Origin: Escherichia coli
GTDB taxonomy: Bacteria; Pseudomonadota; Gammaproteobacteria; Enterobacterales; Enterobacteriaceae
NCBI RefSeq assembly: GCF_044324785.1
Contig: NZ_CP172127.1
DNA length: 64,000 nucleotides
Strand: one strand, 5' to 3'
Position 1 is the stretch's first letter; each line of letters starts with the position of its first letter. Below the pieces are notes generated by a model. That model was not told where the DNA came from. It ran no database searches and saw nothing but the letters and a program-made list of their open reading frames with translations. Both the position numbers and the translations under genes were made by a program. This document shows positions 30,816-53,667 of the stretch, in pieces.

Positions 30816-30819
30816 CATG

Positions 30820-31158: not shown

Positions 31159-31167
31159 AACGCCTCC

Positions 31168-32121: not shown

Positions 32122-32135
32122 GCTCTCTCCTTAAA

Positions 32136-33251: not shown

Positions 33252-33465
33252 TTTGCTGTCCCGCGTTATGTTGTCGGAGACAGTTTGTGAGAAATGCAGG
33301 CCCGGCGATTTTAATCTGCTTTAGAAAACATCAGGGGAGAAGGACAGGGAAAGCAATGCGGTGAACCGGAGGCGGTTATAAAACAGAGGCTGTAAAGCCT
33401 TTATAAAGGTAATACAGCCCCTCATTCGCTGGCAATGATAAATCACCCGCCTGAAGAGAGAAAAC

Positions 33466-33924
33466 TCAGCGACGGGCCGCTGATTCAAGATGGCGGACAA
33501 TGGTATCGAGGATGGGGATTACCACTTCAGGCTGTAGTTCTCCATCCCCCGTCACCGGCAGGAACGGGCGGGCCGGAAGTTCAACAGACTCATTACGCCC
33601 CGTTTTACCCCCGAACTGGTGAATGGCACCGTAAACAACGTTGGTCCCCACAACAGCCTGCCGGTCGTCATGGTCGGTTGATACTGACCCCATCAGACGC
33701 CCGGTATCCTGCAGTGTCTGCCCGTCACGTTCTTCCGCTGCCAGCGAGGGCATCCACCCCGGACGCCCCTCATCAAGAAAGTTAAACTGTGTTTCCGCCA
33801 GCAGGGTTCCGGCGATTTTGCGCATCGCGGGCTCCAGGTCTGTGGCAGCAAGATCCAGCGCACGGAGGCTCCGGCGCAGGGACTTATCGTTAATGGTGAT
33901 ACTGACCAGGTTATCGGAAGCCAT
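33466..33924 (-). CDS. Virion morphogenesis protein, Mu G-like
   Basis: 152 aa after F-like gene. Confidence 0.65.
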   Translation of the reverse strand: MASDNLVSITINDKSLRRSLRALDLAATDLEPAMRKIAGTLLAETQFNFLDEGRPGWMPSLAAEERDGQTLQDTGRLMGSVSTDHDDRQAVVGTNVVYGAIHQFGGKTGRNESVELPARPFLPVTGDGELQPEVVIPILDTIVRHLESAARR

Positions 33925-33926
33925 TG

Positions 33927-37748: not shown

Positions 37749-38293
37749 GATACCACCCCCAGAATTTCCCGGCGCAGTGCCTGTACGGCTTCCGCAGAGA
37801 GCCCGCCCTTACGGGCAATTTTCTCGGCGGCAGCGGCAGCACGTTCAACCCTCTCTCTGACTTCTGCCTGATAGCGCTTGAGGTTGACCGAGGCGCGGGT
37901 CAGTGTGGCGATATTTTTTGAAGCCGTTGCCAGCAGTTTTGCCCGGGCGAAGGGATCGTCGTTTTCCCGCGACTCCTGCAGGCGCATCAGGATATCCGTC
38001 ATTTCGGTCTGGACGAGGGTTATCAGCCCGGCTGAACGGTCATCAGGATCGTCTCCGGCCTCCCGGGCAAGCAGACGCGCTGCCTCGGTTGCCGCCCGCA
38101 CCCGGGCCAGTTGCTGCTCCATTTTGTAGCCAAACCGCTGCAGGGAAGAGCGGGTGATGCTGTACCCCTTTTCCTTCAACAGACTTTCAAGCTCTGCATA
38201 GCCGGTGAAATTATTCTCCGTCAGTGCCCGCTCAAGCCAGCGACGGACCTCCTTCGGCAGAGAATCAATGCTGCTGCGACGTCCCATAATCAC
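37745..38293 (-). CDS. Putative terminase small subunit / DNA-binding packaging protein
   Basis: 182 aa, basic N-terminus, coupled to large terminase. Confidence 0.55.
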   Translation of the reverse strand: MIMGRRSSIDSLPKEVRRWLERALTENNFTGYAELESLLKEKGYSITRSSLQRFGYKMEQQLARVRAATEAARLLAREAGDDPDDRSAGLITLVQTEMTDILMRLQESRENDDPFARAKLLATASKNIATLTRASVNLKRYQAEVRERVERAAAAAEKIARKGGLSAEAVQALRREILGVVS

Positions 38294-38601
38294 TCACTCC
38301 AGTATTTTTCCGGGCGGGCAATACCGGGGCCGCATTCCACGGTGTATTCCACAATATCCACACCAAGGCGACTCAGATCGGCAAACCAGTCACCGGAAGG
38401 CCTCTTCTCCAGTTCCACCATCTTGCGATCTGCCAGGTAATCAAGCTCACGGCGCAGCTCCAGTTGCGTGGTGTCCGGGTAGATGGCGCGGGACACTTCC
38501 AGCAGCAGCGTCTCGCTGGCGGTATAAGGGCGGGTTTTGTTCAGGGCAACCAGCAGACTCCAGCGCAGGGATTCGCGGCGTACCCGGGTAATATCGACCA
38601 T
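38290..38601 (-). CDS. Hypothetical phage protein (103 aa)
   Basis: Coupled ORF between lysis and packaging genes. Confidence 0.45.
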   Translation of the reverse strand: MVDITRVRRESLRWSLLVALNKTRPYTASETLLLEVSRAIYPDTTQLELRRELDYLADRKMVELEKRPSGDWFADLSRLGVDIVEYTVECGPGIARPEKYWSE

Positions 38602-38927
38602 TATTGACCTCCGGTATTGCGGTACTGCTGTACCACTTCCAGTTTGTTGTAGAGCGCGTCCAGTTTGGCCTCGATGACTGTCTGGCCACGGATATAATCC
38701 TCGCGACGGACATAATTCAGCGGTAAATCCGCTTTAAATCGCATAAATTCTTTTTCCAGTTCGCCCCAGTTGGAGGCGGACTGTTGCAGGGCCTGCTCAA
38801 GGGAGGCGAATCGTGCCGCCTGGCGTTCTTCTGTTTTACTGAACAACCATTTGGCGAGCCCTCCCACAAACCCCATGAAGGTGAGCAAAAAACTCACCAC
38901 CGTCCAGAATTCAACCTGCAGTGTCAT
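38601..38927 (-). CDS. Small phage membrane protein (108 aa, one N-terminal TM helix)
   Basis: FWTVVSFLLTFMGFVGGLAKWLF hydrophobic segment. Confidence 0.45.
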   Translation of the reverse strand: MTLQVEFWTVVSFLLTFMGFVGGLAKWLFSKTEERQAARFASLEQALQQSASNWGELEKEFMRFKADLPLNYVRREDYIRGQTVIEAKLDALYNKLEVVQQYRNTGGQ

Positions 38928-39535
38928 TTCTGTAATCCTTCCCGTTCATCCAGTAGCGCGTTTATCTGGTTTCGCCAGCGACGACATTGCCCTGCGTTGT
39001 CGATGATGTTGGCAAGGACGTCAAGCTGGGAGACACCCGAATTGCGTAACCGGGCGTCAGCGGTTTCAGGTTGCCCGGTCGCTGCGCCAGTGCCGGTGCC
39101 AGCGGCGGCAACTGAGTCTGAATGACCGGTGTCGACGGATGCGTTGTCGTATCCGAGTGCGGCGTTGTACTGGCGCACGAAACCGCGAGTAAACACGCAC
39201 TCAATGGGATGGCTCTTACCTTTTTCATCAATCCAGCGCTGTGTGACATCGTTAATTTGCCCCTGTAGTTGTTTGTTCTGGTCCTCCAGTTGAGCAATCT
39301 GCTCAAGATAACCAGCTTCAGCCCGTTGCCCGGCGGCTACCTGCTCCTGATAACGCTCAGACCATGCGCGCAACGCCGCCACCTCACGCCGGGCCTGTTC
39401 TGCCCGGTATCCGTCAAAATCCGCCTGCAGGCGGCTGAGCGCCGCCTGACCGTCAGCGGAGGCCCGGTCGTGGCCTGTGCTGTATCCCAGCCACCAGATC
39501 GCCAGCAGGAAGGTGTTCAGGAGAATGGCCAGCAT
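38924..39535 (-). CDS. i-spanin (Rz-like)
   Basis: Start MLAILLNTFLLAIWWLGY (N-terminal TM) then coiled-coil-rich periplasmic domain; follows the endolysin. Confidence 0.6.
   Translation of the reverse strand: MLAILLNTFLLAIWWLGYSTGHDRASADGQAALSRLQADFDGYRAEQARREVAALRAWSERYQEQVAAGQRAEAGYLEQIAQLEDQNKQLQGQINDVTQRWIDEKGKSHPIECVFTRGFVRQYNAALGYDNASVDTGHSDSVAAAGTGTGAATGQPETADARLRNSGVSQLDVLANIIDNAGQCRRWRNQINALLDEREGLQK
38962..39228 (-). CDS. o-spanin (Rz1-like lipoprotein) embedded in +1 frame within the i-spanin gene
   Basis: MKKVRAIPLSACLLAVSCAS... signal peptide with lipobox-like LAVSC, Pro/Thr-rich body. Confidence 0.55.
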   Translation of the reverse strand: MKKVRAIPLSACLLAVSCASTTPHSDTTTHPSTPVIQTQLPPLAPALAQRPGNLKPLTPGYAIRVSPSLTSLPTSSTTQGNVVAGETR

Positions 39536-39563
39536 AATGACCCGCCACGGCAGCGACCGTAAC

Positions 39564-40301
39564 TTACGTACCCACACAGCTTGCCCCTCCCCATGAGAGA
39601 TAACGCGGGGCCAGCGTGAACAGGATGCGCTGGGGATAATGACGGTTCTCCCGCCAGCTGGCAGTGCTGCGTCCGGCATTCACCGTGGCGACATGACCAA
39701 ACCAGCGGGTGCTGTCCAGCCCTTTTTGTGATGCAAGCCGCCTGTCCCGCTGTACCCAGCCCAGACCACCGTTATAGCCCGACAGTGTCATGGCCATACG
39801 CTCGCAGTCACTGGCGGCGCTGACGCGCTGCCACAGCCAGCGGTCATAGCTGACCAGCGCCCGGATGGCCCATGCCGGATTAAATGGCTCACGGCTGTTA
39901 AGCCCCGGCATCAACTGACTTATCCAGTCGGCGGTGGCGGGCATGAACTGCGCCAGTCCCTGAGCGCCAACCGGCGAGATCGCATCAGGTCGCCAGCCGC
40001 TTTCCTGATGCAGTTGCGCAGCGAAATCAGCCACCGGCGCAGACAGTCCCCATTCAAGCCGGGCATTACGGATCACATCATCGCGATACTGCAGCGCTGC
40101 CTGCGGAGGCTGCGCTGCGCGGGCCTGACTGAAGAAGCCGCCACACCAGAGCAACATTGCGACAAAGAATACCCGTGCCATATGAACCAGAAAGGTCCCG
40201 GCGCGGACTGACAGGCGTTCGGTTCTGATGAAGACCCTAAAGGCTTCGAAAGCCAGTTTCAGGGACATGCATACAATCCAGGTGATCTGCGGCCAGTTCA
40301 T
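39564..40301 (-). CDS. Endolysin, lytic transglycosylase (SLT-domain) type, possibly signal-anchored
   Basis: SLT-like motif ...QLHQESGWRPDAISPVGAQGLAQFMPATADW...; hydrophobic N-terminal segment. Confidence 0.75.
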   Translation of the reverse strand: MNWPQITWIVCMSLKLAFEAFRVFIRTERLSVRAGTFLVHMARVFFVAMLLWCGGFFSQARAAQPPQAALQYRDDVIRNARLEWGLSAPVADFAAQLHQESGWRPDAISPVGAQGLAQFMPATADWISQLMPGLNSREPFNPAWAIRALVSYDRWLWQRVSAASDCERMAMTLSGYNGGLGWVQRDRRLASQKGLDSTRWFGHVATVNAGRSTASWRENRHYPQRILFTLAPRYLSWGGASCVGT

Positions 40302-40303
40302 GA

Positions 40304-40654
40304 TTAAAGCCCCATCGCAACAGCCAGACAGACCGCTGCAACAATCAGTGCACGGCGGATTAACGCAGCAGAAAACACCAGGTGAAGGCCGGTCTGTACC
40401 GGGAAACGCCCATCAGCCATCAGCCTGTCGTCATGTTTCAGGTACTGACCGGGACGGGCTTTGGGGAAGAGCGAACGGTCAAGCCAGTAACCCAGCACTG
40501 CTGCCAGCGTGATGAGTGCCAGCTTGTAGATCACAACAGGCAACTGCTGTGGCGAGACCAGAGCGATGGTGCCCAGCAACAGCACTGAGGTCAGCAGCCA
40601 GCCGCTGAGGCGAGGTTTTTTAACAGGGGGAATGAATTTTTTCAGGTTTTTCAT
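40304..40654 (-). CDS. Putative holin (small membrane protein, 2-3 TM helices)
   Basis: SD AGGAGA before ATG 40654; first gene of the late leftward operon, immediately upstream of the endolysin. Confidence 0.5.
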   Translation of the reverse strand: MKNLKKFIPPVKKPRLSGWLLTSVLLLGTIALVSPQQLPVVIYKLALITLAAVLGYWLDRSLFPKARPGQYLKHDDRLMADGRFPVQTGLHLVFSAALIRRALIVAAVCLAVAMGL

Positions 40655-40784
40655 GTGTGTCTCCTTGTCTGGTGGAGACAGCATCACAAATACAGGGCGC
40701 GAAGGATTTTAAAGCGCGTTAAGAGAGCCGGGGATACGGGATGTGCAGGATAAACGATGAATTATTCACAGAGGAGAATACGAT

Positions 40785-41528
40785 ATGACGCAGACACTGA
40801 ATCCGGTCATCACTGTCACCGTGTCCGGTCCTGTGGGCAGCGGTAAAAGTTACATATTGGCGCGGATAGAGGAAGTGGTGAAACAGGAATTCGGGGGCAG
40901 CGTCATTGTCGATGCTGCAGACGTAGATGATGAGCGGCGTATGAGTGGCGATGATCTGACGACCTGGCAGAAGCCACGGGGTGGCACAGTGATCAGGCTG
41001 GAGGAATACACGGGACAGGGCCTGTTGTCATACGGCGAGGAGCGTATCTGTCGGACGAATGAGCTGCTGGATGTTATATGCCCCACGGGCCGGCAACCCT
41101 GGATACTGCCCGATGCACTGCATGCCACCATTGCGGCACTGATGACAGTTTACGATCAGGAGCTGCTCATGAAGGAGCTACGTAAACTCACCGGTCAGCC
41201 AACAGAATGTTTTTCTGCCCCGAAGTACGGGAAACAGGAACACATCCCGGTGAACACGCTCCCCGTTAACCAGCCTCCCCGGTTCTTCGACGAATACATT
41301 CTGACACCGGAAAATAAAGCTGAGCACGAAGAGATCAAAGCGGCGTTGTTCCGGGAAATCAGGAAGATTGCTGAAATGCAACTGGGGGGCGGGCTGGACA
41401 GAGTGATGGCGAGAGGAGAATGGGAGTCGCTGTTTGAAAGAGTTTCCCCGGAATTACTTCCCCTCGCACTGGCTATCGGGATTATGCAGACAGCGGATAA
41501 ACCTCACTTACGTTCATTAAACACGTAA
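40785..41528 (+). CDS. P-loop NTPase-like protein of unknown function (247 aa)
   Basis: Walker A GPVGSGKS at residues 15-22, rest without recognisable motif; SD GAGGAG 8 nt upstream. Confidence 0.5.
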   Translation: MTQTLNPVITVTVSGPVGSGKSYILARIEEVVKQEFGGSVIVDAADVDDERRMSGDDLTTWQKPRGGTVIRLEEYTGQGLLSYGEERICRTNELLDVICPTGRQPWILPDALHATIAALMTVYDQELLMKELRKLTGQPTECFSAPKYGKQEHIPVNTLPVNQPPRFFDEYILTPENKAEHEEIKAALFREIRKIAEMQLGGGLDRVMARGEWESLFERVSPELLPLALAIGIMQTADKPHLRSLNT

Positions 41529-41908
41529 CGCATAATCCGGGATACGCATTCAGCGATGACTGCATTTTCACCGGTTTTTACTGCATCCAGAAGTGACTCT
41601 TTAAATGGTGCGGGCCGGGGCTGCAGAAGGGTCGGCGTGGCATTGAGCAGACGGAGCGTTTTTTCCGTGAGGACGACATCAGCCGCTCCCACAGCCAGCA
41701 ACTGAGAGTAACGAATATAGCTGTTATCCCGAAGCCATATCAGCGTATCAATAAAATACCGGCACTTTTTCTGGTCGTGATCAACCTGGTCCGGGATATC
41801 GAAAAAACCAGAATAAATCAAAACCTGAGGTGCCGGATGCGTGTTCAGTAATCGGCAGAATATTTTGCCGGTGAGTGCATAAAAATCATCATTTAAGGAG
41901 TGCATCAT
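41504..41908 (-). CDS. Hypothetical protein (134 aa)
   Basis: ORF whose ATG (41906-41908) overlaps the divergent ATG of the next gene (41907). Confidence 0.4.
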   Translation of the reverse strand: MMHSLNDDFYALTGKIFCRLLNTHPAPQVLIYSGFFDIPDQVDHDQKKCRYFIDTLIWLRDNSYIRYSQLLAVGAADVVLTEKTLRLLNATPTLLQPRPAPFKESLLDAVKTGENAVIAECVSRIMRYVFNERK

Positions 41909-42122
41909 GAATCCCCGATTAACGTTAACAGAACATCAGCGCCGTGCTGAAGCAGTGAACAATGTTCTGGAAGATATTATCCGGTTACATCGCGGAGAAC
42001 TGAGTGTCTGTCGTGCCGCTTTTCATTTTCAGGGAATACAAAAGCAGTTTGATACTTCTGTTTTTGCAGAAGGTATTACTTATGCCCTGGACCGGATAAG
42101 GTCAGAAAATCGCCCCGGATAA
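41907..42122 (+). CDS. Hypothetical small protein (71 aa)
   Basis: SD AAGGAG 6 nt upstream of ATG. Confidence 0.4.
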   Translation: MNPRLTLTEHQRRAEAVNNVLEDIIRLHRGELSVCRAAFHFQGIQKQFDTSVFAEGITYALDRIRSENRPG

Positions 42123-42313
42123 TCCCTAAACCACATTAACAGAAATCCCACTATCCCTGCCGCATCATGAAAGAACGACCAGCCCGGTGCTTCGGACCCA
42201 CCGGGCTGGCCATCGTCCCACAGAAGTGGCTGTGAGCCGACCGAGGTTCAGTCAGTCTCGCGAGACCAGACTAGCCTGCCATATTTTTAATAATTGTAAA
42301 AGGCTTACAGATT

Positions 42314-43078
42314 ATGAAAATGAAGACATTACCCATCGTTCCATGGATTGGTGGCAAACGTCGCCTGGCAAAACACATCCTGCCGCTGTTTCCGGCGCAT
42401 GAATGTTATGTGGAGCCGTTTTGTGGGGCAGCAGCGCTCTATTTTCTTAAGACACCCGGCAAGATCGAAGTCATCAATGATATCAACGGTGAACTGGTGA
42501 ATCTGTACCGGGTGGTAAAGCATCACCTGGAAGAATTTGTCCGCCAGTTCAAATGGGCGCTGGTCAGCCGTCAGATCTACAAATGGCTGCAGATCACCCC
42601 GGAAGAAACACTGACGGATATCCAGCGTGCGGCACGGTTCTACTACCTTCAGAAGCAGGCGTTTGGCGGCAAGGTGGCAGAGCACAGCTTCGGTACCTCC
42701 ACCACATCCCCGCCACGCTTCAACCTGCTGCGTATTGAAGAAGAACTGTCAGCAGCACACCTGCGGCTTTCCAGAACAGTCATAGAACACATGGACTGGC
42801 AACAGTGCATTGAGCGTTATGATCGTCCGCACACACTGTTCTACTGCGACCCACCGTACCTGGGTACGGAAGGCTATGGTGTGGATTTTCCTGAAGGGAA
42901 CTACTCGCGGCTGGCAGAGCTGGCCCGGTGCATCAGAGGAAAAATGATAATTTCGGTGAACGATATCCCACAGATGCGCGAGGTGTTCACTGGACTGAAC
43001 ATACAGACAGTGAACATCAACTACAGTCTGGCGGGGAAATCTACGCCGCGCCGTGAACTGGTAATCTGCAACTTCTGA
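42314..43078 (+). CDS. DNA N6-adenine methyltransferase (Dam-like)
   Basis: N-terminal WIGGKRRLAKHILPLFP and catalytic DPPY motif (YCDPPYLG). Confidence 0.85.
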   Translation: MKMKTLPIVPWIGGKRRLAKHILPLFPAHECYVEPFCGAAALYFLKTPGKIEVINDINGELVNLYRVVKHHLEEFVRQFKWALVSRQIYKWLQITPEETLTDIQRAARFYYLQKQAFGGKVAEHSFGTSTTSPPRFNLLRIEEELSAAHLRLSRTVIEHMDWQQCIERYDRPHTLFYCDPPYLGTEGYGVDFPEGNYSRLAELARCIRGKMIISVNDIPQMREVFTGLNIQTVNINYSLAGKSTPRRELVICNF

Positions 43079-43085
43079 AACAAAA

Positions 43086-43108
43086 CCGGAAAGCACAATG
43101 CTTTCCGG
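43086..43108. terminator. Bidirectional hairpin between dam-like gene and repressor gene
   Basis: Perfect 9-bp stem CCGGAAAGC/GCTTTCCGG with 5-nt loop; T-rich run on the minus-strand side. Confidence 0.45.
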
Positions 43109-43194
43109 TAAACCAAACAACTTCCACTATGTCACTGGCGATGTTTTCTGAAAGCATCCAGATCAACCACCTGTCCTTTGTGTCCAGGTCAAAA

Positions 43195-43533
43195 TCAGCC
43201 TGCGAGTTTGCTTGGTTTGGGTTGAATGAAGACTTTGCCGACCTCAAGAATTGCCCTCCGTTGTTCGGGGCTCATTTCGTCGAATGCATCCATTAACTCT
43301 TTCTTTTCTTGTGACACATAAGGTGCAACAACAGGCTGACTCCGCACCCCAGTAACTACATACAAAATATCTACACCGATTTCTGATAGTGCAGATAACT
43401 GCACTGCAGTAGGAGAAGTGCGATCTTTTTCCCAATCAATGAAAGTTCTCTTTGCCACACCTATAGCATCAGCCAACCCTTGCTGTGTAAGAGATAGACG
43501 CTCTCTTTCTTCTTTAATACGTAACCCGATCAT
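43195..43533 (-). CDS. Phage repressor, HTH XRE/cI-type
   Basis: MIGLRIKEERERLSLTQQGLADAIGVAKRTFIDWEKDRTSP is a canonical XRE HTH; divergent from the early operon. Confidence 0.7.
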   Translation of the reverse strand: MIGLRIKEERERLSLTQQGLADAIGVAKRTFIDWEKDRTSPTAVQLSALSEIGVDILYVVTGVRSQPVVAPYVSQEKKELMDAFDEMSPEQRRAILEVGKVFIQPKPSKLAG

Positions 43534-43557
43534 GTGAGTTTTTCTGCACTCTTTAAG

Positions 43558-43586
43558 TTGACTGGTGAGGTAATCTGCACCATAAT
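43558..43586 (+). promoter_or_regulatory. Putative sigma70 early promoter with overlapping repressor operators
   Basis: -35 TTGACT (43558-43563), 17-bp spacer, -10 CATAAT (43581-43586); direct repeat TCTGCAC at 43543-43549 and 43574-43580. Confidence 0.4.
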
Positions 43587-43633
43587 CTATCACACATAAG
43601 GCAAACATCATTGCATCAACAAAGGAGACAACG

Positions 43634-43822
43634 ATGACTGCAGAACAAGTCAAAGCTCTCTTCCGCCAGCGCGGGATCACTTTCACCCGCTGGGCAGAAG
43701 AAAACGGCTACAACCGCAATGAGGTATACCGCGTTCTCAATGGGCAGACCAAAGCCCGTTACGGTAAATCCCATGAAATCGCCGTGAAGTTGGGGCTGAA
43801 ATCAACAGCTCAGGCAGCCTGA
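43634..43822 (+). CDS. Small DNA-binding protein (Ner-like position)
   Basis: 62 aa basic protein, first gene of the rightward early operon, divergent from repressor. Confidence 0.4.
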   Translation: MTAEQVKALFRQRGITFTRWAEENGYNRNEVYRVLNGQTKARYGKSHEIAVKLGLKSTAQAA

Positions 43823-43868
43823 AGATTTTGAGTCTTTGTAAAAGGTTATCACATATCGCAAAAGAGGT

Positions 43869-44183
43869 ATGCAGATGAGTAAGACGAATGTTTCAAGCTC
43901 CGGCAGTCGCATCCTCCGGGTACTCAAAGCGCTGCGCGGTCATGCCCTGAACGGTATTTCCAACGGTGAACTGGCGGCAGCACTGCACGAGTCACCGGCA
44001 AACATCAACCGGGCACTCAACACCCTCATTGAAGAAGGGTTGGCCCTGAAACTGGAAAACGGGCGTTTCGCGCCGGGCATCCAGTTACTGCAGATCGCTA
44101 TGGCCCACAGTAACGAGATGGCACGTGCACAGGATCGCATTAACGAAATCAACCAACGTGTCATTTCAGGTAGTCGTTTGTAA
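43869..44183 (+). CDS. Putative winged-helix DNA-binding regulator (104 aa)
   Basis: ILRVLKALRGHALNGISNGELAAALHESPANINRALNTLIEEGL resembles a wHTH. Confidence 0.4.
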   Translation: MQMSKTNVSSSGSRILRVLKALRGHALNGISNGELAAALHESPANINRALNTLIEEGLALKLENGRFAPGIQLLQIAMAHSNEMARAQDRINEINQRVISGSRL

Positions 44184-44193
44184 GGAGTAATAA

Positions 44194-45105
44194 ATGGGAC
44201 GCACCAAATCACCGATTAACACTGAACTGAACGCCGAGGTACCGCTGTCGGATGATCTCAATGTCAGTCTGAACGCCATGACACAGCATCGTATGGAGAT
44301 CATGCAGCAGTTTGGCGATGGTCAGCCCTATGAGCGTGATCGCATAGTTCATGAGGCTCGGTTTTATATGGCACAGAGCGCTGAGGCCATGCTGGAAGCA
44401 GGTAAACGACTTATTATTCTCAAAGAAAATGAACCTCACGGGGACTTTGTTGGAATTGTAGAAGAACAACTTGGTCTGCATGTGCGCGCAGCACAACGAA
44501 TGATGAAAGCATCTTTGAAATACCTTTCACCAAAACTAGAGCCAAAAGCGACAACGTTGTCGCTTTTAGGTAAGGCAAAATTATTTGAACTTGTTGCTGA
44601 AGATGACGACGACCTTGCTGAACTGGCCGACGGTGGCACAGTTGCCGGACTGACGCTTGACGATGTTGATCGCATGTCAGTACGTGAATTGCGTCAGGCC
44701 CTGCGCGAAGCGCGCGAAACCAACGCAGCACAACAGCGCGTACTCGCCGACAAAAATGAAAAAATAGACTCACTCTCCACCAGACTGGAGAAGAAATCCC
44801 GTATTCAGCCACCTGAGCCTGATGAAGAGGTGAAGAAACTGCGGGCAGAAGTGACCGCGTTAGCGGTTGAGGCGGAATCTGCCATCGCCGTTCGACTGTC
44901 CAGCGCTTTTGAGACGCTGTGCGCATATTGTGCTGAAAACATGATTGATACCCCCAGAGACTTCATGGCAGGCCTGGTCTGTCAACTGGAAAGCACAGCG
45001 CGTAGCCTGCGCTCCACATTTGACCTGCCGGACGAGCCAACAGGCAATGCAGCGCCTTCATGGCTGACTGAGCCGACGCCACAGATTAACGGGCTGGAGG
45101 CATAA
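44194..45105 (+). CDS. Hypothetical early protein (303 aa), possibly DUF3102-like
   Basis: Acidic, coiled-coil-rich; located just upstream of transposase A. Confidence 0.4.
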   Translation: MGRTKSPINTELNAEVPLSDDLNVSLNAMTQHRMEIMQQFGDGQPYERDRIVHEARFYMAQSAEAMLEAGKRLIILKENEPHGDFVGIVEEQLGLHVRAAQRMMKASLKYLSPKLEPKATTLSLLGKAKLFELVAEDDDDLAELADGGTVAGLTLDDVDRMSVRELRQALREARETNAAQQRVLADKNEKIDSLSTRLEKKSRIQPPEPDEEVKKLRAEVTALAVEAESAIAVRLSSAFETLCAYCAENMIDTPRDFMAGLVCQLESTARSLRSTFDLPDEPTGNAAPSWLTEPTPQINGLEA

Positions 45106-45108
45106 CCA

Positions 45109-46878
45109 ATGAATGCTGCCCTGACTGAACGACTGGTTTATGTCGCCCGCGCGGCACGTGACGCGGGGCATGGTAAACGCGGCGCAGTATACGACGCTGC
45201 CTGTGCTGAACTTGGCATGTCCCGCGCCACTCTGCTGCGCAGGCTGAAGGAGGTATCTGTGACTGATAAACGCAAAAAACGCGCCGATGCCGGGCGCAGC
45301 GCCCTGACCCGCGACGAAGCCGCGCTGATATCTGCCACACTGCGTGAGGCCACCCGCAAGAACGGTAAGCGTCTCTATTCCATCGCGGATGCAGTGGAAA
45401 CCCTGCGGGCTAACGGCTTTATATCCGCAGGCAGAACAGATGAAACCACCGGTGAGTTTTTCCCGTTGTCCGAAGATGCCATCAGCCGAGCCCTGCGTAA
45501 CTATGGCCTGCACCCGGAACAACTGGATGCCCCTGCGCCGCATACCGAAGTGGCCAGTCTGCATCCCAATCATGTCTGGCAGATTGACGCCTCACTCTGC
45601 ACGCTTTACTACCTGAGCAATGGACATAAAGGGCTGCAGGTGATGGACAGCGCGAAGTTCTACAAGAACAAGCCCGCTAACCTTGCCCGTATCGCCAGTG
45701 ACCGCGTGTGGAGTTACGAGATTACCGACCATGCCAGCGGCTGGATTTACGTTGAGTATGTGACGGGCGCGGAATCAGGTGAGAACCTGTGTTCTGTGCT
45801 TATCAACGCCATGCAGGAGCGTGGCGGCGCAGACGTGCTGCACGGTGTGCCGAAAATACTCTATCTCGACCCCGGCTCGGCAAACACCGCGGGTATGACG
45901 AAAAACATGTGCCGCTCACTGGGCATCGACCTGATAGCGCACAAGCCGCATAACGCCCGCGCCACCGGACAGGTGGAAAAGGCGCGGGACATTATCGAAC
46001 GCAAGCTGGAGCCGGGTCTGAAGTTCCGGCCGGTTCACAGTCTGGAAGAACTCAACGCGCTGGCCGCGAAATGGCGCAGCCACTTTAACGCCACGGCTGT
46101 TCACAGCCGCCACGGTAAAACCCGCACGGATATCTGGCTGAAGATTACTGCTGAGCAGCTGAAAAAAGCGCCTTCCGTTGAGGTATGTCGTGAACTGGCT
46201 GTGGCGGCACCAGAACTCCGCAAAGTCACGCCAAAACTTCGTGTCTCGTTCCGGGGCACTGAATTTGACGTATCAACGGTACCGGGCGTACTGGTTGGTG
46301 AAAAACTGATGATTACCCGTAACCCGTGGCGCAGCGATGTGGCACAGGTGGTTCTGACCGGTGAGGACGGCCACGAGACGTTCTTCCTGGTCGAAGAGGT
46401 CAGAAAGAACGAGTTTGGCTTTGCTGAAGGCGCGGCGGTATTTGGCGAAAGTTACAAAGCCCTGCCGGAAACCCCGGCGCAGATGGCGGCAAAAGAAACC
46501 GAAGCGCTGGTCACCGGTACAGACAACGCCGCAGATGCAGCTGCCGCACGCAAGGCGAAGGCGCTGCCGTTCGGCGGGCGGCTTGACCCGTATAAACATA
46601 TCGACGACACCACACTTCCGGCCTATATGCCGAAGCGTGGTCAGGCCTCTGACGTACGCGGGCCGCGCACTGAACAACGTCCCATGACTTATGTGGAGGC
46701 CGCGAAAGCCCTGCGCGATAAGTTCAGCGCCAACGGCTTTACCTGGACGCTGGAACATTACCGCCAGTTAACGGCACAGTATCCGGACGGCGTACCGGAA
46801 GCCGCACTGGATGAAGTCATGGCCACGCTGACCACGCCGGCCCGCAGCAGCGTTATCAGTATTGTTAACGGCAACTGA
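45109..46878 (+). CDS. Mu-type DDE transposase (A protein)
   Basis: 589 aa with integrase-core region (HVWQIDASL...) followed by the B-like ATPase gene. Confidence 0.8.
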   Translation: MNAALTERLVYVARAARDAGHGKRGAVYDAACAELGMSRATLLRRLKEVSVTDKRKKRADAGRSALTRDEAALISATLREATRKNGKRLYSIADAVETLRANGFISAGRTDETTGEFFPLSEDAISRALRNYGLHPEQLDAPAPHTEVASLHPNHVWQIDASLCTLYYLSNGHKGLQVMDSAKFYKNKPANLARIASDRVWSYEITDHASGWIYVEYVTGAESGENLCSVLINAMQERGGADVLHGVPKILYLDPGSANTAGMTKNMCRSLGIDLIAHKPHNARATGQVEKARDIIERKLEPGLKFRPVHSLEELNALAAKWRSHFNATAVHSRHGKTRTDIWLKITAEQLKKAPSVEVCRELAVAAPELRKVTPKLRVSFRGTEFDVSTVPGVLVGEKLMITRNPWRSDVAQVVLTGEDGHETFFLVEEVRKNEFGFAEGAAVFGESYKALPETPAQMAAKETEALVTGTDNAADAAAARKAKALPFGGRLDPYKHIDDTTLPAYMPKRGQASDVRGPRTEQRPMTYVEAAKALRDKFSANGFTWTLEHYRQLTAQYPDGVPEAALDEVMATLTTPARSSVISIVNGN

Positions 46879-46888
46879 GGAGGGAAAC

Positions 46889-48055
46889 ATGCTGGTACTG
46901 AAGCAGCAACTGAAAGAAGCCCGTATTCCACAGGCGGTGGTGGCGAGAGCTGTCGATGTTTCTGAGGCCACGCTGGCCCAGATTGTGAATCATAACGCGT
47001 GGCCCCGCACCAGCCCCGGAGAAGTGCGCCGGCGTCTTGCGTCCTGGCTGGAAAGTCAGGGGATTGATACAACGAAGAGTTTTGATGCTGTACAGGGCGC
47101 GGCCACGCCCCGTACAGCGGGTACCACAGATAAAACGAGCCTCAGTGAGGAAGAGAATATGTTACTCAAAAAACAGGTGTTATTTCCAGCAACCAAAAAA
47201 GCGTTTGGTCTTTTCCGTGACCCGTTCGCCGACGAAGCCATGCAGGGTTCTGATGATGTGTTCACCACCCCGGATATTCGCTACGTGCGTGAGGCGTTGT
47301 ACCAGACAGCCCGTCATGGTGGGTTTATGGCCGTCATCGGTGAGTCCGGTGCGGGTAAATCCACGCTGCGCCGCGACCTGACTGAACGTATCAACCGCGA
47401 GAATGCGCCGGTAATTGTTATCGAGCCATACATCATCGCTATGGAAGACAACGATGTGAAAGGGAAAACCCTGAAGGCAGCAGCGATTGCCGAAGCCATT
47501 ATCAGTACCATCGCACCACTGGAAAGCATCAGACGCAGTCAGGACGCCCGCTTTCGCCAGTTGCATCGCGTCCTGAAAGACAGCAGCCAGGCGGGGTTCA
47601 GCCACGTTCTGGTGATTGAGGAGGCCCACAGTCTGCCCATTCCGACACTGAAACACCTCAAACGCTTTTTTGAGCTGGAGTCCGGTTTCAAAAAACTGCT
47701 GTCCATCGTGCTGATTGGCCAGCCGGAACTGGCGACAAAACTGTCTGAACGCAATATGGAAGTCCGTGAAGTCGTTCAGCGCTGTGAGGTGGTCGAACTT
47801 CTGCCTCTGGACAATAACCTTGAAGAGTTTCTGACGTTCAAACTGCAACGGGCCGGTAAACAACTGACGGACATTATGGACGCCAGCGCAGTGGATGCCA
47901 TACGTGCCCGCCTGAGCAATCCGGGAAGTCATCGTAAAAATATGGTCAGCCTGCTGTATCCGCTGGCCGTCAGTAACCTGGTAATAGCCGCCATGAATCT
48001 GGCCGCTGAAATCGGGGTTCCACAGGTCAACGCTGACGTTGTCAAAGGGGTTTAA
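46889..48055 (+). CDS. Transposition ATPase (MuB-like AAA+ target DNA activator)
   Basis: Walker A VIGESGAGKST, Walker B-like HVLVIEEAH; SD GGAGGG before ATG. Confidence 0.8.
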   Translation: MLVLKQQLKEARIPQAVVARAVDVSEATLAQIVNHNAWPRTSPGEVRRRLASWLESQGIDTTKSFDAVQGAATPRTAGTTDKTSLSEEENMLLKKQVLFPATKKAFGLFRDPFADEAMQGSDDVFTTPDIRYVREALYQTARHGGFMAVIGESGAGKSTLRRDLTERINRENAPVIVIEPYIIAMEDNDVKGKTLKAAAIAEAIISTIAPLESIRRSQDARFRQLHRVLKDSSQAGFSHVLVIEEAHSLPIPTLKHLKRFFELESGFKKLLSIVLIGQPELATKLSERNMEVREVVQRCEVVELLPLDNNLEEFLTFKLQRAGKQLTDIMDASAVDAIRARLSNPGSHRKNMVSLLYPLAVSNLVIAAMNLAAEIGVPQVNADVVKGV

Positions 48056-48057
48056 TA

Positions 48058-48327
48058 ATGAAATCCACCACAGGTATCAACCAGCAAATCAGCAAAGTGC
48101 AGTCAGCCATTATGGCGCTTAAGGCGACGAACACGGATGTACAAAGCATCACCATCAGGGGTAACAAACCTGTCATCCGCGTTTCCCGGAGTGCGCATTG
48201 CATGCGCATGCTTGAGCAGGGAAAGGCCTGTTATCTGTATACCGGTCATGACCACAGGGGACATTTCCGTCAGGGCGTTTTCGAACTGCACGGCTGTCGC
48301 GTCGTGTGGCCGGAATCTTTGTGGTAA
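48058..48327 (+). CDS. Hypothetical early protein (89 aa)
   Basis: Coupled to B stop. Confidence 0.4.
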   Translation: MKSTTGINQQISKVQSAIMALKATNTDVQSITIRGNKPVIRVSRSAHCMRMLEQGKACYLYTGHDHRGHFRQGVFELHGCRVVWPESLW

Positions 48328-48354
48328 TCAGCACAACAGGAGGAGTCATAAAAT

Positions 48355-48885
48355 ATGGCAAAAAGTACAAAAGGGGCAAAACGTATCAAAGCCGCAGCAG
48401 CACTCTGGGTGCCGGGGACACGCGAAGAGGTCATTGAGGGAATCAGACTGCTTGGTGACGCGCAACGTGAACTGGTCAGGGCTGAAACAGAAATGAATGA
48501 CACCATTGGCGACATCACCGCACGTTATGCCCCGCTCACCGAGAGCCTGAAAAAACGCATGGCCGAACTGCAGTCCGGTATTCAGACATGGTGTGAGGCA
48601 CACCGTGATGAACTGACCGGCAACGGGAAGGTGAAGTTCGCTAACCTCACCACCGGCGAGGTGCAGTGGCGAAACCGTCCGCCGTCAGTCAGTATCCGTG
48701 GGGCGGATAATGTTATTGAATTACTGAGACGTCTGGGGCTTGAGCGCTTTATCCGTGTAAAGGAGGAAATAAATAAAGACGCCATCCTGAATGAAAAGGA
48801 CGCCGTGAAAAATATTCCCGGTATTACCATAAAAAGTGATATTGAGGATTTTTCAATAATTCCTTTTGAGCAGAATGTGCAGTAA
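48355..48885 (+). CDS. gam: Host-nuclease inhibitor Gam
   Basis: 176 aa closely matching Mu Gam along its length (AKRIKAAAALWVP...IGDAQRE...ETEMND...WCEAHRDELT...IRVKEEINKDAIL...DFSIIPFEQ). Confidence 0.85.
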   Translation: MAKSTKGAKRIKAAAALWVPGTREEVIEGIRLLGDAQRELVRAETEMNDTIGDITARYAPLTESLKKRMAELQSGIQTWCEAHRDELTGNGKVKFANLTTGEVQWRNRPPSVSIRGADNVIELLRRLGLERFIRVKEEINKDAILNEKDAVKNIPGITIKSDIEDFSIIPFEQNVQ

Positions 48886-48981
48886 AAACAGCATATAAGC
48901 TATTTAAAACAGCCTTTTCTTTTTTATTCCGGCATCAGCGCCGTGGGCTTCTGCACGCCGGAAACAGAGGAGAATTAAATC

Positions 48982-49176
48982 ATGATATTTAAATGTATTC
49001 AGTGCGAGAGGGATATAACAGCCCTGCGTTTTCACAGCGCCATCGCCGTGATGTCCGGTAAGTACCACGTACCTGCAGTACGCGTCACCCTGGTCTGTCC
49101 GTACTGCAGTCAGCATTTTTCGGCAGACGTGCCCGTCATGGAATTCTCCCGCCCTGACAGGGAGGACTCGCAATGA
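48982..49176 (+). CDS. Small zinc-ribbon protein (64 aa)
   Basis: Two CxxC pairs (CIQC ... CPYC). Confidence 0.4.
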   Translation: MIFKCIQCERDITALRFHSAIAVMSGKYHVPAVRVTLVCPYCSQHFSADVPVMEFSRPDREDSQ

Positions 49177-49445
49177 TTACCCCACAGGAAGCACGACAGC
49201 GCACCCGAACCCTTGTTGAACACTATGTCAACGAGTGTGAATGCCGCGACCTCACCGATGTGAAGCACGTCCTGACGGCGCTAATCAGCATGACCGCTCA
49301 GGCCATTGTGGCGACCAACGGAAAGGCGGCTGCCCTGCAGGTACTGGTGAACACACTCACCCACACGGCAGAGCACGATGTGCCGTACCGGATGGAAACC
49401 ACTGCAGAAGGCGGCCTGAACATCACCGTCGACCGGAAACACTGA
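49173..49445 (+). CDS. Hypothetical early protein (90 aa)
   Basis: Coupled ORF. Confidence 0.4.
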   Translation: MITPQEARQRTRTLVEHYVNECECRDLTDVKHVLTALISMTAQAIVATNGKAAALQVLVNTLTHTAEHDVPYRMETTAEGGLNITVDRKH

Positions 49446-49454
49446 GGGCGCGGC

Positions 49455-49760
49455 ATGACACGGAACACCGAACTCACCCGCACCGCCCTCTACCGTCTGG
49501 CCCTGCAGCGTTTCGGGCCGGACGCACAGGCCCTGAAACTGACAGAAGAGGCCGCTGAACTGGCGGCCAGTGCCGCCCGCAACCTGAACGGACAGGGCAG
49601 CGAAAGTGACCTCGCGGCAGAGCTGGCAGACGTGGAAATCATGACAGAGCAGCTGCGCCTTCAGGGAATGGACCGGCTGATTGACTTCCACAAACAGAAA
49701 AAACTGGAACGCCTTGCCGCACGGCTGGGCGTCATGTACACCGGAGATACTGAACAATGA
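49455..49760 (+). CDS. Small MazG-like nucleotide pyrophosphohydrolase-type protein (tentative)
   Basis: 101 aa helical protein with EEAAELAA...AELADVEIM pattern reminiscent of MazG-type NTP-PPase. Confidence 0.4.
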   Translation: MTRNTELTRTALYRLALQRFGPDAQALKLTEEAAELAASAARNLNGQGSESDLAAELADVEIMTEQLRLQGMDRLIDFHKQKKLERLAARLGVMYTGDTEQ

Positions 49761-50440
49761 CAGACCAGGATAAACACATTGAGAAACTGAAAAAGTTGCT
49801 GGCGCTGGCCGCATCCGGCAACCCTCACGAGGCCGCTCTGGCACTGCGCCGTGCCCGTAAACTGATGGATGTTCACGGCATCACACATTCCGACATCGCC
49901 ATGAGTGATATTGATGAAACCATCAGTCACTACTGGCCGACAGGCAGCCTCCGTCCACCGCGCTACATGCTGGGCCTGATGAACATCATCCGCGAGGCAT
50001 TTGGTGTTAACTCCATCATTCACCCCGGCACATATCCGGGTGTGGGGTTCTACGGCAACCGGGAACGGGCTGCACTGGCTGCGTACACCTGGGAAGTGCT
50101 GGCCCGCCAGCTGAAAAAGGCGCGTCAGCAATATATCAGCGCACAGAACAAAAGAATAAAAACTGCCACCCGTACCAGCCGTGGTGACCAGTTTGCTGAA
50201 GGCTGGGTGCTGGCCGTTATCAGTGAAATACAGTCCTTCGCCCTGACCGATGACGAACGTGAACTGATGCAGCAGTGGCTGGAACATAAATACCCGCAGA
50301 CGCAAACCACCAGGGCGCGTAAACCGGGAAGAAGCCGCAATGGCGACGCCTCGCGCTATGCGGGGTTTCTTGAAGGGCAGAACGTCAGACTGCACCGCCC
50401 GGTCAGTGGGCAGGAACAACAGAAACTGGAGGCCAGATGA
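49757..50440 (+). CDS. Hypothetical early protein (227 aa), DUF2786-like N-terminus
   Basis: N-terminal IEKLKKLLALAASGNPHEAALALRRARKLM pattern. Confidence 0.45.
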   Translation: MTDQDKHIEKLKKLLALAASGNPHEAALALRRARKLMDVHGITHSDIAMSDIDETISHYWPTGSLRPPRYMLGLMNIIREAFGVNSIIHPGTYPGVGFYGNRERAALAAYTWEVLARQLKKARQQYISAQNKRIKTATRTSRGDQFAEGWVLAVISEIQSFALTDDERELMQQWLEHKYPQTQTTRARKPGRSRNGDASRYAGFLEGQNVRLHRPVSGQEQQKLEAR

Positions 50441-50667
50441 TTACGCTATCAGGTAAAAGCCGGAAATTAAAAGCCTGCCGAATATCTGCCAGATACCTTT
50501 TTGCCCGCGCCTTTTTTAAGAACGTCAGGCCGGGGATCACAATTGGTGTTATTGCCGGACGCGAACAGGTTGAAAAATACATGTCAGGTGCATGGTGGAA
50601 TAACGACCCTGTCATTGCTGCCCGTAATATTCATATCAGTTGGGGGGATATTCAGAATGACGGCTGA
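50437..50667 (+). CDS. Hypothetical small protein (76 aa)
   Basis: Coupled ORF. Confidence 0.3.
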   Translation: MITLSGKSRKLKACRISARYLFARAFFKNVRPGITIGVIAGREQVEKYMSGAWWNNDPVIAARNIHISWGDIQNDG

Positions 50668-50872
50668 ATCTGTTGTATGTGCCCTGTTCTGGTATTGTTT
50701 TGTCGGTTGGTGTACTGCTGAACTGCACCGCCGTTCAGGGTTTTATTCACGTTACAGTGGTGCTGGCTACTGGATTAGCTGGTCGGTGATGTTCCTGTGC
50801 TGGCCTGTGGCGCTTCCTTTATATGTCGATTATATCGGTGGCGCAGGTAAAAGGAGCAACGATGATGACTAA
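50664..50872 (+). CDS. Small membrane protein (2 TM)
   Basis: VVCALFWYCFVGWC and WSVMFLCWPVALPLYV hydrophobic segments. Confidence 0.35.
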
Positions 50873-51314
50873 ACAACGTCTTATCCAGCTCATTCATATT
50901 GCCCGTAATGAACTGGGTATGGATGAAGACACCTACCGCCAGATGTTACAGGGGCTGACCGGTAAAGCCTCAACCAAAGGAATGGATACCACACAACTAA
51001 ACTGCGTGCTGGAATCCATGAAAAGGAAAGGCTTTCGCGTTAAGCCTGCCGGAAAAGCCAGCTCCGGTTTACCGCTGGATAACCATCCGCAGTCCAGGAA
51101 AATCCGTGCGCTATGGCTTGAAATGGCTGCTGCCGGCATTGTTCGTGACCGTTCAGAAAATGCATTAGCGCGGTGGATCAAGCGGGAAACGGGCATCAGC
51201 GCCCTGCGCTGGCTCAGTACTGAACAGGCAAGCAGTGTTATTGAGAAACTGAAGAAGTGGCAGCGCAGAGCTGCGGGAGTCAAACATGAGCGACCTGAAT
51301 CAGTTTCGAAGTAA
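50862..51314 (+). CDS. gemA: GemA-like regulatory protein (Mu gp16 family)
   Basis: SD AGGAG before ATG; position immediately before Mor; size ~150 aa. Confidence 0.6.
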   Translation: MMTKQRLIQLIHIARNELGMDEDTYRQMLQGLTGKASTKGMDTTQLNCVLESMKRKGFRVKPAGKASSGLPLDNHPQSRKIRALWLEMAAAGIVRDRSENALARWIKRETGISALRWLSTEQASSVIEKLKKWQRRAAGVKHERPESVSK

Positions 51315-51684
51315 AGGGCCGGAACTCCTGGTGGAGCTGGCACAGCATACCTCTGAGACCGTTCGCGAGATTATTGATATTGAGCCCGCAATTGCCGACC
51401 AGATTGGTCAGGCCGTCGCGAACCGAATGATGCAGGTCTGGGGCGGGCAAAACGTTTATTTCCCGATGGGCATGGTATGGAAGGTCAGTCAGCGCGACCG
51501 GGAAATCTTCAGGGAGTTTAACGGACGCAACCACCACGAACTGGCCCGCAAGTTTGGTGTTTCGCTTCAGTGGGTCTACAGCGTGGTTAAGCGGGTCAGA
51601 AAAGAAGAACTGGATCGGATGCAGGGCAGGTTGTTTGATGAAGATCTGCCAGAGGAGACGAAAGACGTTAACAAATCCAGATAA
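51286..51684 (+). CDS. mor: Mor-like middle-operon transcriptional activator
   Basis: C-terminal ...VYFPMG...REIFREFNGRNHHELARKFGVSLQWVYSVVKR matches the Mor/C family HTH. Confidence 0.7.
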   Translation: MSDLNQFRSKGPELLVELAQHTSETVREIIDIEPAIADQIGQAVANRMMQVWGGQNVYFPMGMVWKVSQRDREIFREFNGRNHHELARKFGVSLQWVYSVVKRVRKEELDRMQGRLFDEDLPEETKDVNKSR

Positions 51685-51730
51685 TTCCTGCTTGTTAAAG
51701 TCCTTTCAAAAATCTCCTTATTGTATAAAA

Positions 51731-51760
51731 GCACGGTAGACCCCTTACCGTGCTTTTTTT
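51731..51760 (+). terminator. Rho-independent terminator after mor
   Basis: Perfect 8-bp stem GCACGGTA/TACCGTGC, 7-nt loop, followed by TTTTTTT (51754-51760). Confidence 0.65.
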
Positions 51761-51798
51761 ATGCTCTCTCTTTAGTATTCAGGATGCAGGGAGAAAAT

Positions 51799-52431
51799 AT
51801 GTTTGACGTTTCGTTGTTAAATCTGCCATGGGCAACACTGGTGACCCTGACCAGTGGCTATATTGGGTATTTTATTGCGAATGTGGGACTGAAGGATCAC
51901 CACAAGCCCATTGAGGTGACTTTTTCTTCGCTGATTTTTGGCCTGACAGCAATGATGGCTTACCAGGCTGTTATGTGGGCAGGTCTGAATGCCTGGCTGG
52001 CAACACCACCAGCACTTCTGTGTGCCGTTACATGCGGTGCGTGGTGGCGCAGGTACGGTCGCAAATGGATGTACAGATTACTGTGGAATAATGATATTTC
52101 ATGGTCTGACGATACCAGCTCAGCATGGCAGGCAATGTTTGATCAAACAGGCTTCAGCGTTACCGAGGTCAGAGTGATTCTTCGCGATGGTTCCGGTATG
52201 ATGTCACGGCTGCCAGGGAACTTTGAAGAGTGGCCTAACGGTCCGTTTACCCTGGGGAATAAAGGCGATATGGTTCTTTACGTCACGCACAGCAGCCCTT
52301 CAGGCAGTAACGAATGGGAAGAGTATAAAGGCGTGGTTGATAAGTACTGGGGAGCTCTGGCAACCTATATTCCAGCAGATCAGATTGCCAGAGTGGAGAT
52401 CAGGCGCGTTCGTGCAACGAACGATGAATGA
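51799..52431 (+). CDS. Membrane-anchored protein (211 aa), candidate moron / superinfection-exclusion factor
   Basis: Own SD (GGGAGA) after the mor terminator; N-terminal TM helices (WATLVTLTSGYIGYFIANVGL, FSSLIFGLTAMMAYQAVMWAGL) plus soluble C-terminal domain; last gene before the prophage right end. Confidence 0.55.
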   Translation: MFDVSLLNLPWATLVTLTSGYIGYFIANVGLKDHHKPIEVTFSSLIFGLTAMMAYQAVMWAGLNAWLATPPALLCAVTCGAWWRRYGRKWMYRLLWNNDISWSDDTSSAWQAMFDQTGFSVTEVRVILRDGSGMMSRLPGNFEEWPNGPFTLGNKGDMVLYVTHSSPSGSNEWEEYKGVVDKYWGALATYIPADQIARVEIRRVRATNDE

Positions 52432-52744
52432 TGTTTATTTTTTCCCTGGGGCAGGGGCTGCCGGCATAGTGGTTTTATTGGCAGAGGAAGACGATTCTCC
52501 TTTTCTACCGGAATCGCGCTCGAACGTCACGATGTGCTTGCTTTTGGGCTTTTCTGAGTAATCCAGGCTATCATGCTTATTGTTTTGAGTAGTCATTGGA
52601 ATCATCCTTTTTGTTGCGGGTCATGTTTCAGCAAACTCGATTCTAAGTTGCCAGGAAGGATGATTTCAATGCCCGACTTATCTATCGTATAGCGGAAAAG
52701 AATTTCAGTTCTGTTCACCAGAACCCATGTTAACCCACTCCAAT

Positions 52745-52792
52745 TCGTTATTTATCTCACGGATCCCCCTTCATTTATCTCATGTCTGATCA
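52745..52792. repeat. Prophage right terminus with two putative transposase-binding motifs (inverted relative to left end)
   Basis: Reverse complement reads TGATCAGACATGAGATAAATGAAGGGGGATCCGTGAGATAAATAACG; motifs at + 52772-52779 and 52749-52756. Confidence 0.6.
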
Positions 52793-53245
52793 GTTCCCGC
52801 CCTGCGGCAGGCTAAACCACGCCATGCCGTCGTGGTGCATCCCGGCCTGCGCCGCCTGTTCTTCCGTGGTGTTGCTACCGTCGGTTTTAAAAACCGGCAG
52901 ATTTCCGGCAATCCCGGTGGCGTCGCCCCATTTGTAGAAGGGCTTCGCGATGTATCCTTCCGGCACGATAACGGTATCTTCCGTGGAAACCGGCAGGCTG
53001 GTGAAACCGAGCGTCGTCGCTTTGCCGAGGTTACCGCTTGCTTTGGAGACCACTTTCGCCAGCGCGTTTTCCTGTTTCAGCAGAAATGGGAACGCTGCCG
53101 CGGCACCGGCGACCGTGCCTGCCTGTAACAGACGGCGGCGTGACAAATAGACTTCCGCCACCTGCGAAAACGCGCGGTTATCGCTCGGGTTACTGATTTC
53201 TTCACTATGCTCACGTTTGAATAAAGTTTTTAACGGTCTGCCCAT
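52793..53245 (-). pseudogene. phoX: PhoX-family secreted phosphatase gene, 5' part (Tat signal), separated from its 3' part by the prophage
   Basis: Twin-arginine motif SRRRLLQAGTVAGAAAAFPF; frame terminated by TGA supplied by the prophage terminal TGATCA. Confidence 0.65.
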
Positions 53246-53667
53246 TGCGGTTTCCTTTCAAAAAATCGATTTCAAGGGGAATCATTTTTATGCACGTGAG
53301 TCTACGGAAAGATTGTTACGGAAATATAACAATTGTCATAAAAAACCGGCGATAAAATCATCTATGGTCGGGACGCGGTTTCAGGTATGATGTGAGGCTA
53401 GAATTCTGAACGCTCTCTTTTGTTGAGCATATATGGACGTCCCAGATGAGGCAAGTACTGGTTCGATGCGGTTTGCGACCATATATCCGGCGTCGTTAGT
53501 AGGTTCAATGACCTGCGCCATGATGTTATCCGGGCCCTATTTCCTAATCACTACACCGGTATTTGATTACCCAGGTCAACTTCAGACTGTTACAGGGGCG
53601 GTAGCCGTTATCTCATCAGTGAATGTAAACTCAGTTAAAAATATTTTCTATAACTTACTGTTTTTCT

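Follow-up and report, generated by a model that had tools for sequence, protein, structure and literature searches.

The region 53246-53400 of the window (i.e. the whole 64-kb stretch of Escherichia coli DNA analysed) lies directly 5′ of a 151-aa ORF. It is the 5′ fragment of a PhoX phosphatase gene and encodes the N-terminal 150 residues of the enzyme; the fragment matches Pfam PF05787 with 41.1 bits (cut-off 24, E = 1.8e-10) and contains the twin-arginine motif SRRRLLQ (TAT_signal, 19.1 bits, slightly below the cut-off of 22.7). In a tblastn comparison with intact PhoX, residues 1-154 align with this fragment at 99.4%. The remaining 510 codons of phoX (12922-14451) were found beyond a 38.3-kb insertion, and the two halves combined match, at 99-100% identity, the RefSeq "PhoX family protein" WP_000533456.1, which is the intact 659-aa PhoX of strain 2020N21-246 (locus L001). 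Both hallmarks of a PhoX alkaline phosphatase, the PF05787 domain and a twin-arginine signal peptide, are present. The coordinates of all features are presented in Table 1.

A comparison of the window with the intact allele revealed that L001 1-4006 corresponds to window 10446-14451 (100% identity) and L001 4001-6251 to window 52793-55043 (99.9% identity), the latter covering the first part of phoX together with the DNA upstream of it. The original prediction, that the 5′ region of phoX has been retained beside a disrupted gene, is borne out by this alignment; across E. coli strains with an intact 659-aa phoX, the identity of the 5′ flank is 99.9-100%. The 5′ region of phoX was found in 94 of 5,426 complete E. 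coli genomes. We also performed a scan of one genome per species, which identified 80 loci with PhoX orthologs (60-81% identity); none of them is from E. coli, which fits an accessory gene. The stretch 53246-53400 probably contains the native phoX promoter in intact form, phoX being an accessory gene of E. coli that encodes a Tat-exported alkaline phosphatase.

Some of the neighbours of phoX are of the iron-uptake type. In Enterobacter, a gene encoding a TonB-dependent receptor is located directly upstream (L007 690-2873), and decayed "iron ABC transporter" pseudogenes (permease, ATPase and binding protein) are located directly downstream of the E. coli gene (L001 13-2377, i.e. window ~10458-12822). 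The cofactor of PhoX includes iron, and the two may be linked.

The insertion separating the two parts of phoX has the ends TGAT...ATCA, with GATAAAT repeats at both of them, and encodes (i) an rve transposase, (ii) an AAA+ MuB-like ATPase, (iii) Gam, GemA and Mor, and (iv) a Gin-like invertase. Its early region is 94.9% identical to that of Escherichia phage PhiKM, the closest phage record. The same right end adjoins many different genes in other genomes, and the junction with phoX seen here was found in none of the 5,426 complete E. coli genomes. The sequence GTTCCC (L001 4001-4006) flanks the insertion, as compared with the intact L001 allele, and phoX is thus split after codon 150. We conclude that a Mu-like transposable prophage jumped into phoX. 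With bacteriophage Mu it shares insertion at random sites, a short duplication of the target, TG...CA termini, and genes for a DDE transposase, MuB-like ATPase, Gam, GemA, Mor and Gin-like invertase. The apparent duplication is 6 bp long, and 5 bp is also possible. The element looks complete, with the invertase gene at its left end. The genes of the early region (transposase, MuB-like ATPase, Gam, GemA, Mor) point to the right end. The two arms, early and late, thus run outwards from the middle, whereas Mu is collinear.

Two further observations concern this prophage. In the intact-phoX strains, L001 6306-6449 is an 89.7% identical copy of the last 145 bp of the prophage right end (window 52639-52783); it lies next to a gene of the LysR family, some 1.8 kb upstream of phoX, and looks like the solitary remnant of an older, related insertion. 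Within the prophage, positions 48160-48177 of the plus strand (GGTAACAAACCTGTCATC), between the MuB-like gene and gam on the early-gene strand, give the best match in the window to the PhoB matrix described below (17.6 bits). The chance expectation for a match of this strength, roughly estimated as N x 2^-S, is of the order of 0.6 in 128k positions.

The DNA upstream of the phoX promoter has a different origin. A segment of 157 bp (53428-53584) is 84.7% identical to an unannotated stretch that about 850 E. coli plasmids carry behind a fragment of an IS3-family transposase gene; it is probably the remnant of an IS end, and it shows that the native flank of phoX extends for no more than about 100 nt upstream of the two-repeat box (Table 1). 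A remnant of an IS3-type HTH begins at ~53924. The 69-aa ORF at 53668-53877 (minus strand) appeared by eye to be IS110-transposase-like at its C-terminus; it gave no Pfam hit and is not annotated by RefSeq in sister strains, and it is not claimed here as a transposase. The ORFs 53433-53699 (plus strand) and 53381-53521 (minus strand) gave no Pfam hit and were taken as non-genes. A plasmid-borne E. coli allele of phoX (L086 2950-3050, pJNE25-005_2), which adjoins a gene for a phytase-like esterase, is 94.6% identical, with homology extending only to ~53329; there, an IS3 fragment truncates the first repeat of the box (..TCATTATATTTCTGTAACA), and the second repeat is of the ortholog type, TGTAACA and not CGTAACA.

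Table 1. Features of the disrupted phoX locus and of its predicted promoter (coordinates of the window).
Feature	Coordinates	Strand	Remarks
phoX 3′ part	12919..14451	-	Residues 150-659 and stop codon; 100% identity (tblastn); own promoter gone
Mu-like transposable prophage	14452..52792		38,341 bp; junctions compared with the intact allele
Target-site duplication GTTCCC	52793..52798 (right copy); 14446-14451 (left copy)		L001 4001-4006, on both sides of the insertion
phoX′ 5′ fragment	52790..53245	-	150 phoX codons (Tat signal and start of the PhoX domain); prophage end adds 1 codon and stop
Shine-Dalgarno-like AAGGAA	53252..53257	-	6 nt before the ATG at 53245; AGGA in all aligned orthologs
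-10-like hexamer TAGACT	53299..53304	-	9 nt downstream of the box; T1, A2 and T6 (nearly) invariant in orthologs
Two-repeat box of the OmpR/PhoB family (Pho-box type), TGTTATATTTCCGTAACA	53314..53331	- (phoX sense)	Repeat 1 TGTTAT, spacer ATTTC, repeat 2 CGTAAC
TGTCATA	53334..53340	+	Outside the box, on the strand opposite to phoX; unconserved

A literature search on the regulation of PhoX in Enterobacteriaceae gave nothing specific; in other bacteria, phoX has been reported as a member of the pho regulon (review PMC9306846). Both strands of the window were scanned with a PhoB matrix derived from 59 ChIP-seq sites of E. coli (Fitzgerald et al. 2023, PMC10294691, Table 1), whose leave-one-out scores range from 4.9 to 23.8 bits (10th percentile 9.6, median 14.6). 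According to the original prediction, a full direct-repeat Pho box was not evident in this region. This analysis contradicts that statement, since it revealed a box of two (C)TGTCAT-related direct repeats with 11-bp periodicity and an A/T-rich spacer, on the strand of phoX. The box is the best match in the flank, with 11.3 bits on the window background and 10.8 bits on a uniform one, which makes it the 7th best of the 128k positions in the window and places it at about the 10th-15th percentile of true PhoB sites; the functional sites of phoE, amn and phnC reach 10.6, 12.5 and 13.2 bits, respectively. Dinucleotide shuffles of the 150-nt flank attain the score of the box with P = 0.016, and among control windows of 150 nt the proportion is 0.6%. 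Judged by this one sequence, the box is of modest significance (P about 0.01-0.02).

Repeat 2 has the core CGTAA, as in phoE. Repeat 1 has TGTTA, the one feature that does not fit PhoB: T in place of the C of TGTCA occurs in 0 of the 59 PhoB sites (-5.9 bits). The phnC promoter provides no support for this core, since the TGTTAG present there in K-12 does not fall into the register of its four repeats, which are spaced at 11 bp. With its spacer ATTTC and its repeat 2 core CGTAA, the E. coli box is the weakest of its family; since the DNA upstream of it is IS debris, its function in E. coli may be reduced.

The position of the box is that of an activator site. In the K-12 promoters of phoA, pstS and phnC, exactly 9 nt separate the promoter-proximal 18-mer from the -10 elements TATAGT, TATTTT and CACGAT, respectively. 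The same 9-nt distance separates the phoX box from TAGACT. No match to a -35 element was found in the phoX promoter, where ATATTT occupies the position at 17-nt spacing. The distance between the end of the box and the start codon is 43-65 nt in phoA, pstS and phnC, and 68 nt in phoX. A search for a box of at least 9 bits, followed by 9 nt and TAnnnT, returned a single match on either strand of the 64 kb, namely the phoX site. The box resembles those of the phoA, pstS, phoE and phnC promoters in its 11-bp-spaced direct repeats on the coding strand and its A/T-rich spacer. It also shares with PhoB-activated promoters the gene-sense orientation, the replacement of the -35 element and the fixed distance of 9 nt between the 18-mer and the -10. 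It differs from the E. coli PhoB promoters in the core of repeat 1 (TGTTA and not TGTCA or TGTAA), in its low-end score and in the truncation of the downstream gene. A search for structured RNA in the leader and flank yielded no Rfam match better than E = 0.93.

The box is conserved upstream of orthologous genes. Nearly all of the orthologs from Enterobacteriaceae carry TGTTATAAAWNTGTAACA on the sense strand, 50-65 nt upstream of the start codon, with scores of 10-15 bits. The orthologs of Neisseriaceae, Pasteurellaceae, Wohlfahrtiimonas, Ignatzschineria, Vogesella and others contain canonical boxes, e.g. TGTCATCAAACTGTCACA or TGTCATAAAGTTGTCATA (15-22 bits). In these phoX genes of other Proteobacteria (L040-L082), the box stands at the place described here with respect to the start codon, and in the same orientation. 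The distant orthologs have the canonical TGTCATnAAnnTGTCATA (TGTCAT-N4-TGTCAT) at the corresponding position, whereas Enterobacteriaceae, including the E. coli allele, have the variant TGTTAT-N5-TGTAAC. The layout of box, 9 nt and TAnnnT was found in 50 of the 57 orthologs with a matched start codon, and 91% of the orthologs score higher than the 99th percentile of the controls (5,642 windows from the ortholog loci). An alignment of the window with 20 upstream regions of Enterobacteriaceae contains only three conserved blocks: (i) the box, (ii) positions 1, 2 and 6 of the -10 and (iii) the ribosome-binding site. Within the box, GTTAT and GTAA are invariant in this alignment, and position 6 of repeat 2 varies between C and T (TGTAAC/TGTAAT), a change that is tolerated by PhoB and breaks the palindrome formed by the two repeats.

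This last point bears on another reading of the conserved block, namely that it is a palindromic operator, TGTTA-N8-TAACA, for some dimeric regulator. The box is indeed nearly self-complementary, and here the antisense strand, too, reaches 7-10 bits. However, T6 and G13, both invariant, do not complement each other, a C-to-T change that is frequent at position 17 (TGTAATA) destroys the palindrome and is neutral for a PhoB-type repeat, and the distant orthologs have non-palindromic direct repeats at the corresponding position. An operator of this kind is very improbable, and we rejected it on account of the asymmetry of the invariant positions. Two other proposals start from the heptamer TGTCATA, which the original prediction had singled out as a half-site reminiscent of a Pho box. 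The heptamer is present as described; the role assigned to it does not hold. It is an exact copy of the 7-bp Pho repeat consensus, located 89-95 nt (i.e. less than 100 nt) from the start codon of the phoX fragment, and might on these grounds be the surviving half of a Pho box, under weak or uncertain control by PhoB. Against this, it lies 3 nt upstream of the two-repeat box on the opposite strand to phoX, and activation by PhoB depends on orientation and spacing. It has no partner repeat at 11 bp, and the best 18-mer spanning it scores 4.3 bits, below all of the 59 true sites (weakest 4.9, leave-one-out). TGTCATA occurs 9 times in the 64-kb window (6.47 +/- 2.4 expected), and 24 of 100 shuffles contain at least 9 copies, which means that its frequency is that of chance. 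The heptamer is missing from every ortholog, the bases around it are conserved in none of them and the DNA upstream of the box cannot be aligned; it also lies beyond the homology of the plasmid allele, which stops at ~53329. Strand, chance frequency, low score and lack of conservation rule it out as a Pho half-site, and this role is almost inconceivable. The scoring with a PhoB matrix that had been suggested as a check did return a match (10.8-11.3 bits, above the 10th percentile of 9.6), at the box and not at the flagged site, and this outcome favours regulation of the Pho type. The reverse complement of the heptamer, ATGACA (53339-53334), could alternatively serve as the -35 of a constitutive sigma-70 promoter, with AACAAT (ending at 53312) as its -10, blocked by a protein bound to the box. 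In a consensus scan, this pair lies on the phoX strand with 9 of 12 consensus matches and a 16-nt spacer. Such matches, however, occur at the level of chance (3 in 1.3 kb, 1.4 +/- 1.4 expected), AACAAT is a weak -10, and the -35 is conserved in no ortholog; we consider such a promoter improbable. The lone consensus heptamer was thus a poor guide: the actual site, composed of non-consensus repeats, lies on the other strand, and was detected only by the combination of the matrix with ortholog footprinting.

A further alternative concerns ArcA, either as the sole protein recognizing the box or as a competitor and repressor (in the form of ArcA-P) at a hybrid site activated by PhoB; in that case, phosphate starvation would switch on phoX, the product of which is an Fe(III)/Ca enzyme, only in the presence of oxygen. 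With a matrix of 115 ArcA boxes (PMC3798270, Table S3; scores 8.9-21.4 bits, 10th percentile 10.7, median 15.3), the E. coli box scores 11.7 bits, within the range of the ChIP-seq ArcA boxes. The boxes of Enterobacteriaceae as a group have a median of 16.0 bits with this matrix, level with the true ArcA median, versus 13.5 bits with that of PhoB. The box resembles ArcA boxes (ATGTTAAAAA-N-ATGTTAAAAA; Park et al. 2013, Park and Kiley 2014) in its 11-bp spacing, the TGTTA core of repeat 1, the A-rich spacer and the range of the score. TGTTA, invariant in 35 loci of Enterobacteriaceae, is the core of the ArcA repeat, whose spacing is likewise 11 bp, and ArcA uses TGTAA as repeat 2 at icdA (PMC4173790). 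ArcA also has binding sites at or close to two Pho genes, phoH and ugpB, and it is an approximately 3-fold repressor of phoA-psiF. The two matrices otherwise separate their sites cleanly: when both are applied to the same 17-nt frame, true PhoB sites have a median PhoB-minus-ArcA log-odds of +16.6 and true ArcA sites one of -18.4, and only 1 of 59 and 1 of 115 sites, respectively, cross over. The phoX boxes of Enterobacteriaceae, at -0.7 to -9.7, fall between the two classes, in this rarely occupied zone. On the other hand, ArcA is mainly a repressor without a fixed position, whereas the phoX site shows the exact class-II geometry of PhoB. The phoX promoter has no -35, so it would still need an activator, and ArcA alone does not explain it. 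At position 6, both repeats have T or C, as in PhoB sites, where ArcA prefers A, and the C at position 11 costs the ArcA score 2.8 bits. Repeat 2 in the family is TGTAA and not TGTTA, there is no additional third repeat, and the distant orthologs carry pure Pho boxes with ArcA scores of about 2. The sole PhoB site that crosses over, that of phoE, has an equally ambiguous profile (PhoB 10.8, ArcA 14.6 in the 17-nt frame), and yet phoE is about 1000-fold PhoB-dependent (PMC10294691); an ambiguous profile is thus compatible with activation by PhoB. Recognition by ArcA, or by both proteins, appears unlikely. PhoB is indicated by the gene family, by the class-II geometry with no -35 and by the canonical boxes found in distant orthologs, and it remains the preferred candidate in view of the phoE precedent and the pyrimidine at position 6 of both repeats, although control by PhoB and dual control by PhoB and ArcA are not separable in silico.

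We therefore regard the two-repeat box together with TAGACT as probably a PhoB-activated promoter that was orphaned by the Mu-like prophage. In such an activator-dependent promoter, the PhoB-type box on the phoX strand would replace the -35 element. Under phosphate starvation, phosphorylated PhoB would be expected to occupy both repeats head-to-tail and to recruit sigma-70 RNA polymerase, in the manner of phoA and pstS. Transcription is predicted to start downstream of TAGACT, at about 53290-53293 of the minus strand, giving a leader of about 50 nt with the putative ribosome-binding site AAGGAA. The prophage transposed into codon 151; the promoter would consequently drive only a 150-residue stub with the Tat signal, as well as antisense transcription into the prophage end, and the catalytic part of phoX, 38 kb away, would be left unexpressed.

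For this genome, the consequences are small, as the gene is dead and the promoter a leftover. At most, phosphate starvation would lead to the production of the Tat-signal stub and of antisense transcripts into the prophage end. The phoX box constitutes a further example of a well-known kind of site, mildly unusual only in its PhoB/ArcA-ambiguous sequence across Enterobacteriaceae. It is conceivable, if rather unlikely, that in this family an ancestral Pho box has been held by selection as a hybrid, composed of the TGTTA core of ArcA and a TGTAA repeat accepted by both proteins. If so, PhoB and ArcA-P would be rivals for a single site, and phosphate as well as oxygen or redox state would gate an iron(III)-dependent phosphatase, and the copy in the window would be a slightly decayed example driving a gene stub. 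The invariant, PhoB/ArcA-ambiguous box of phoX is the one point of wider interest, as a simple case in which a single site may be shared by two paralogous response regulators.
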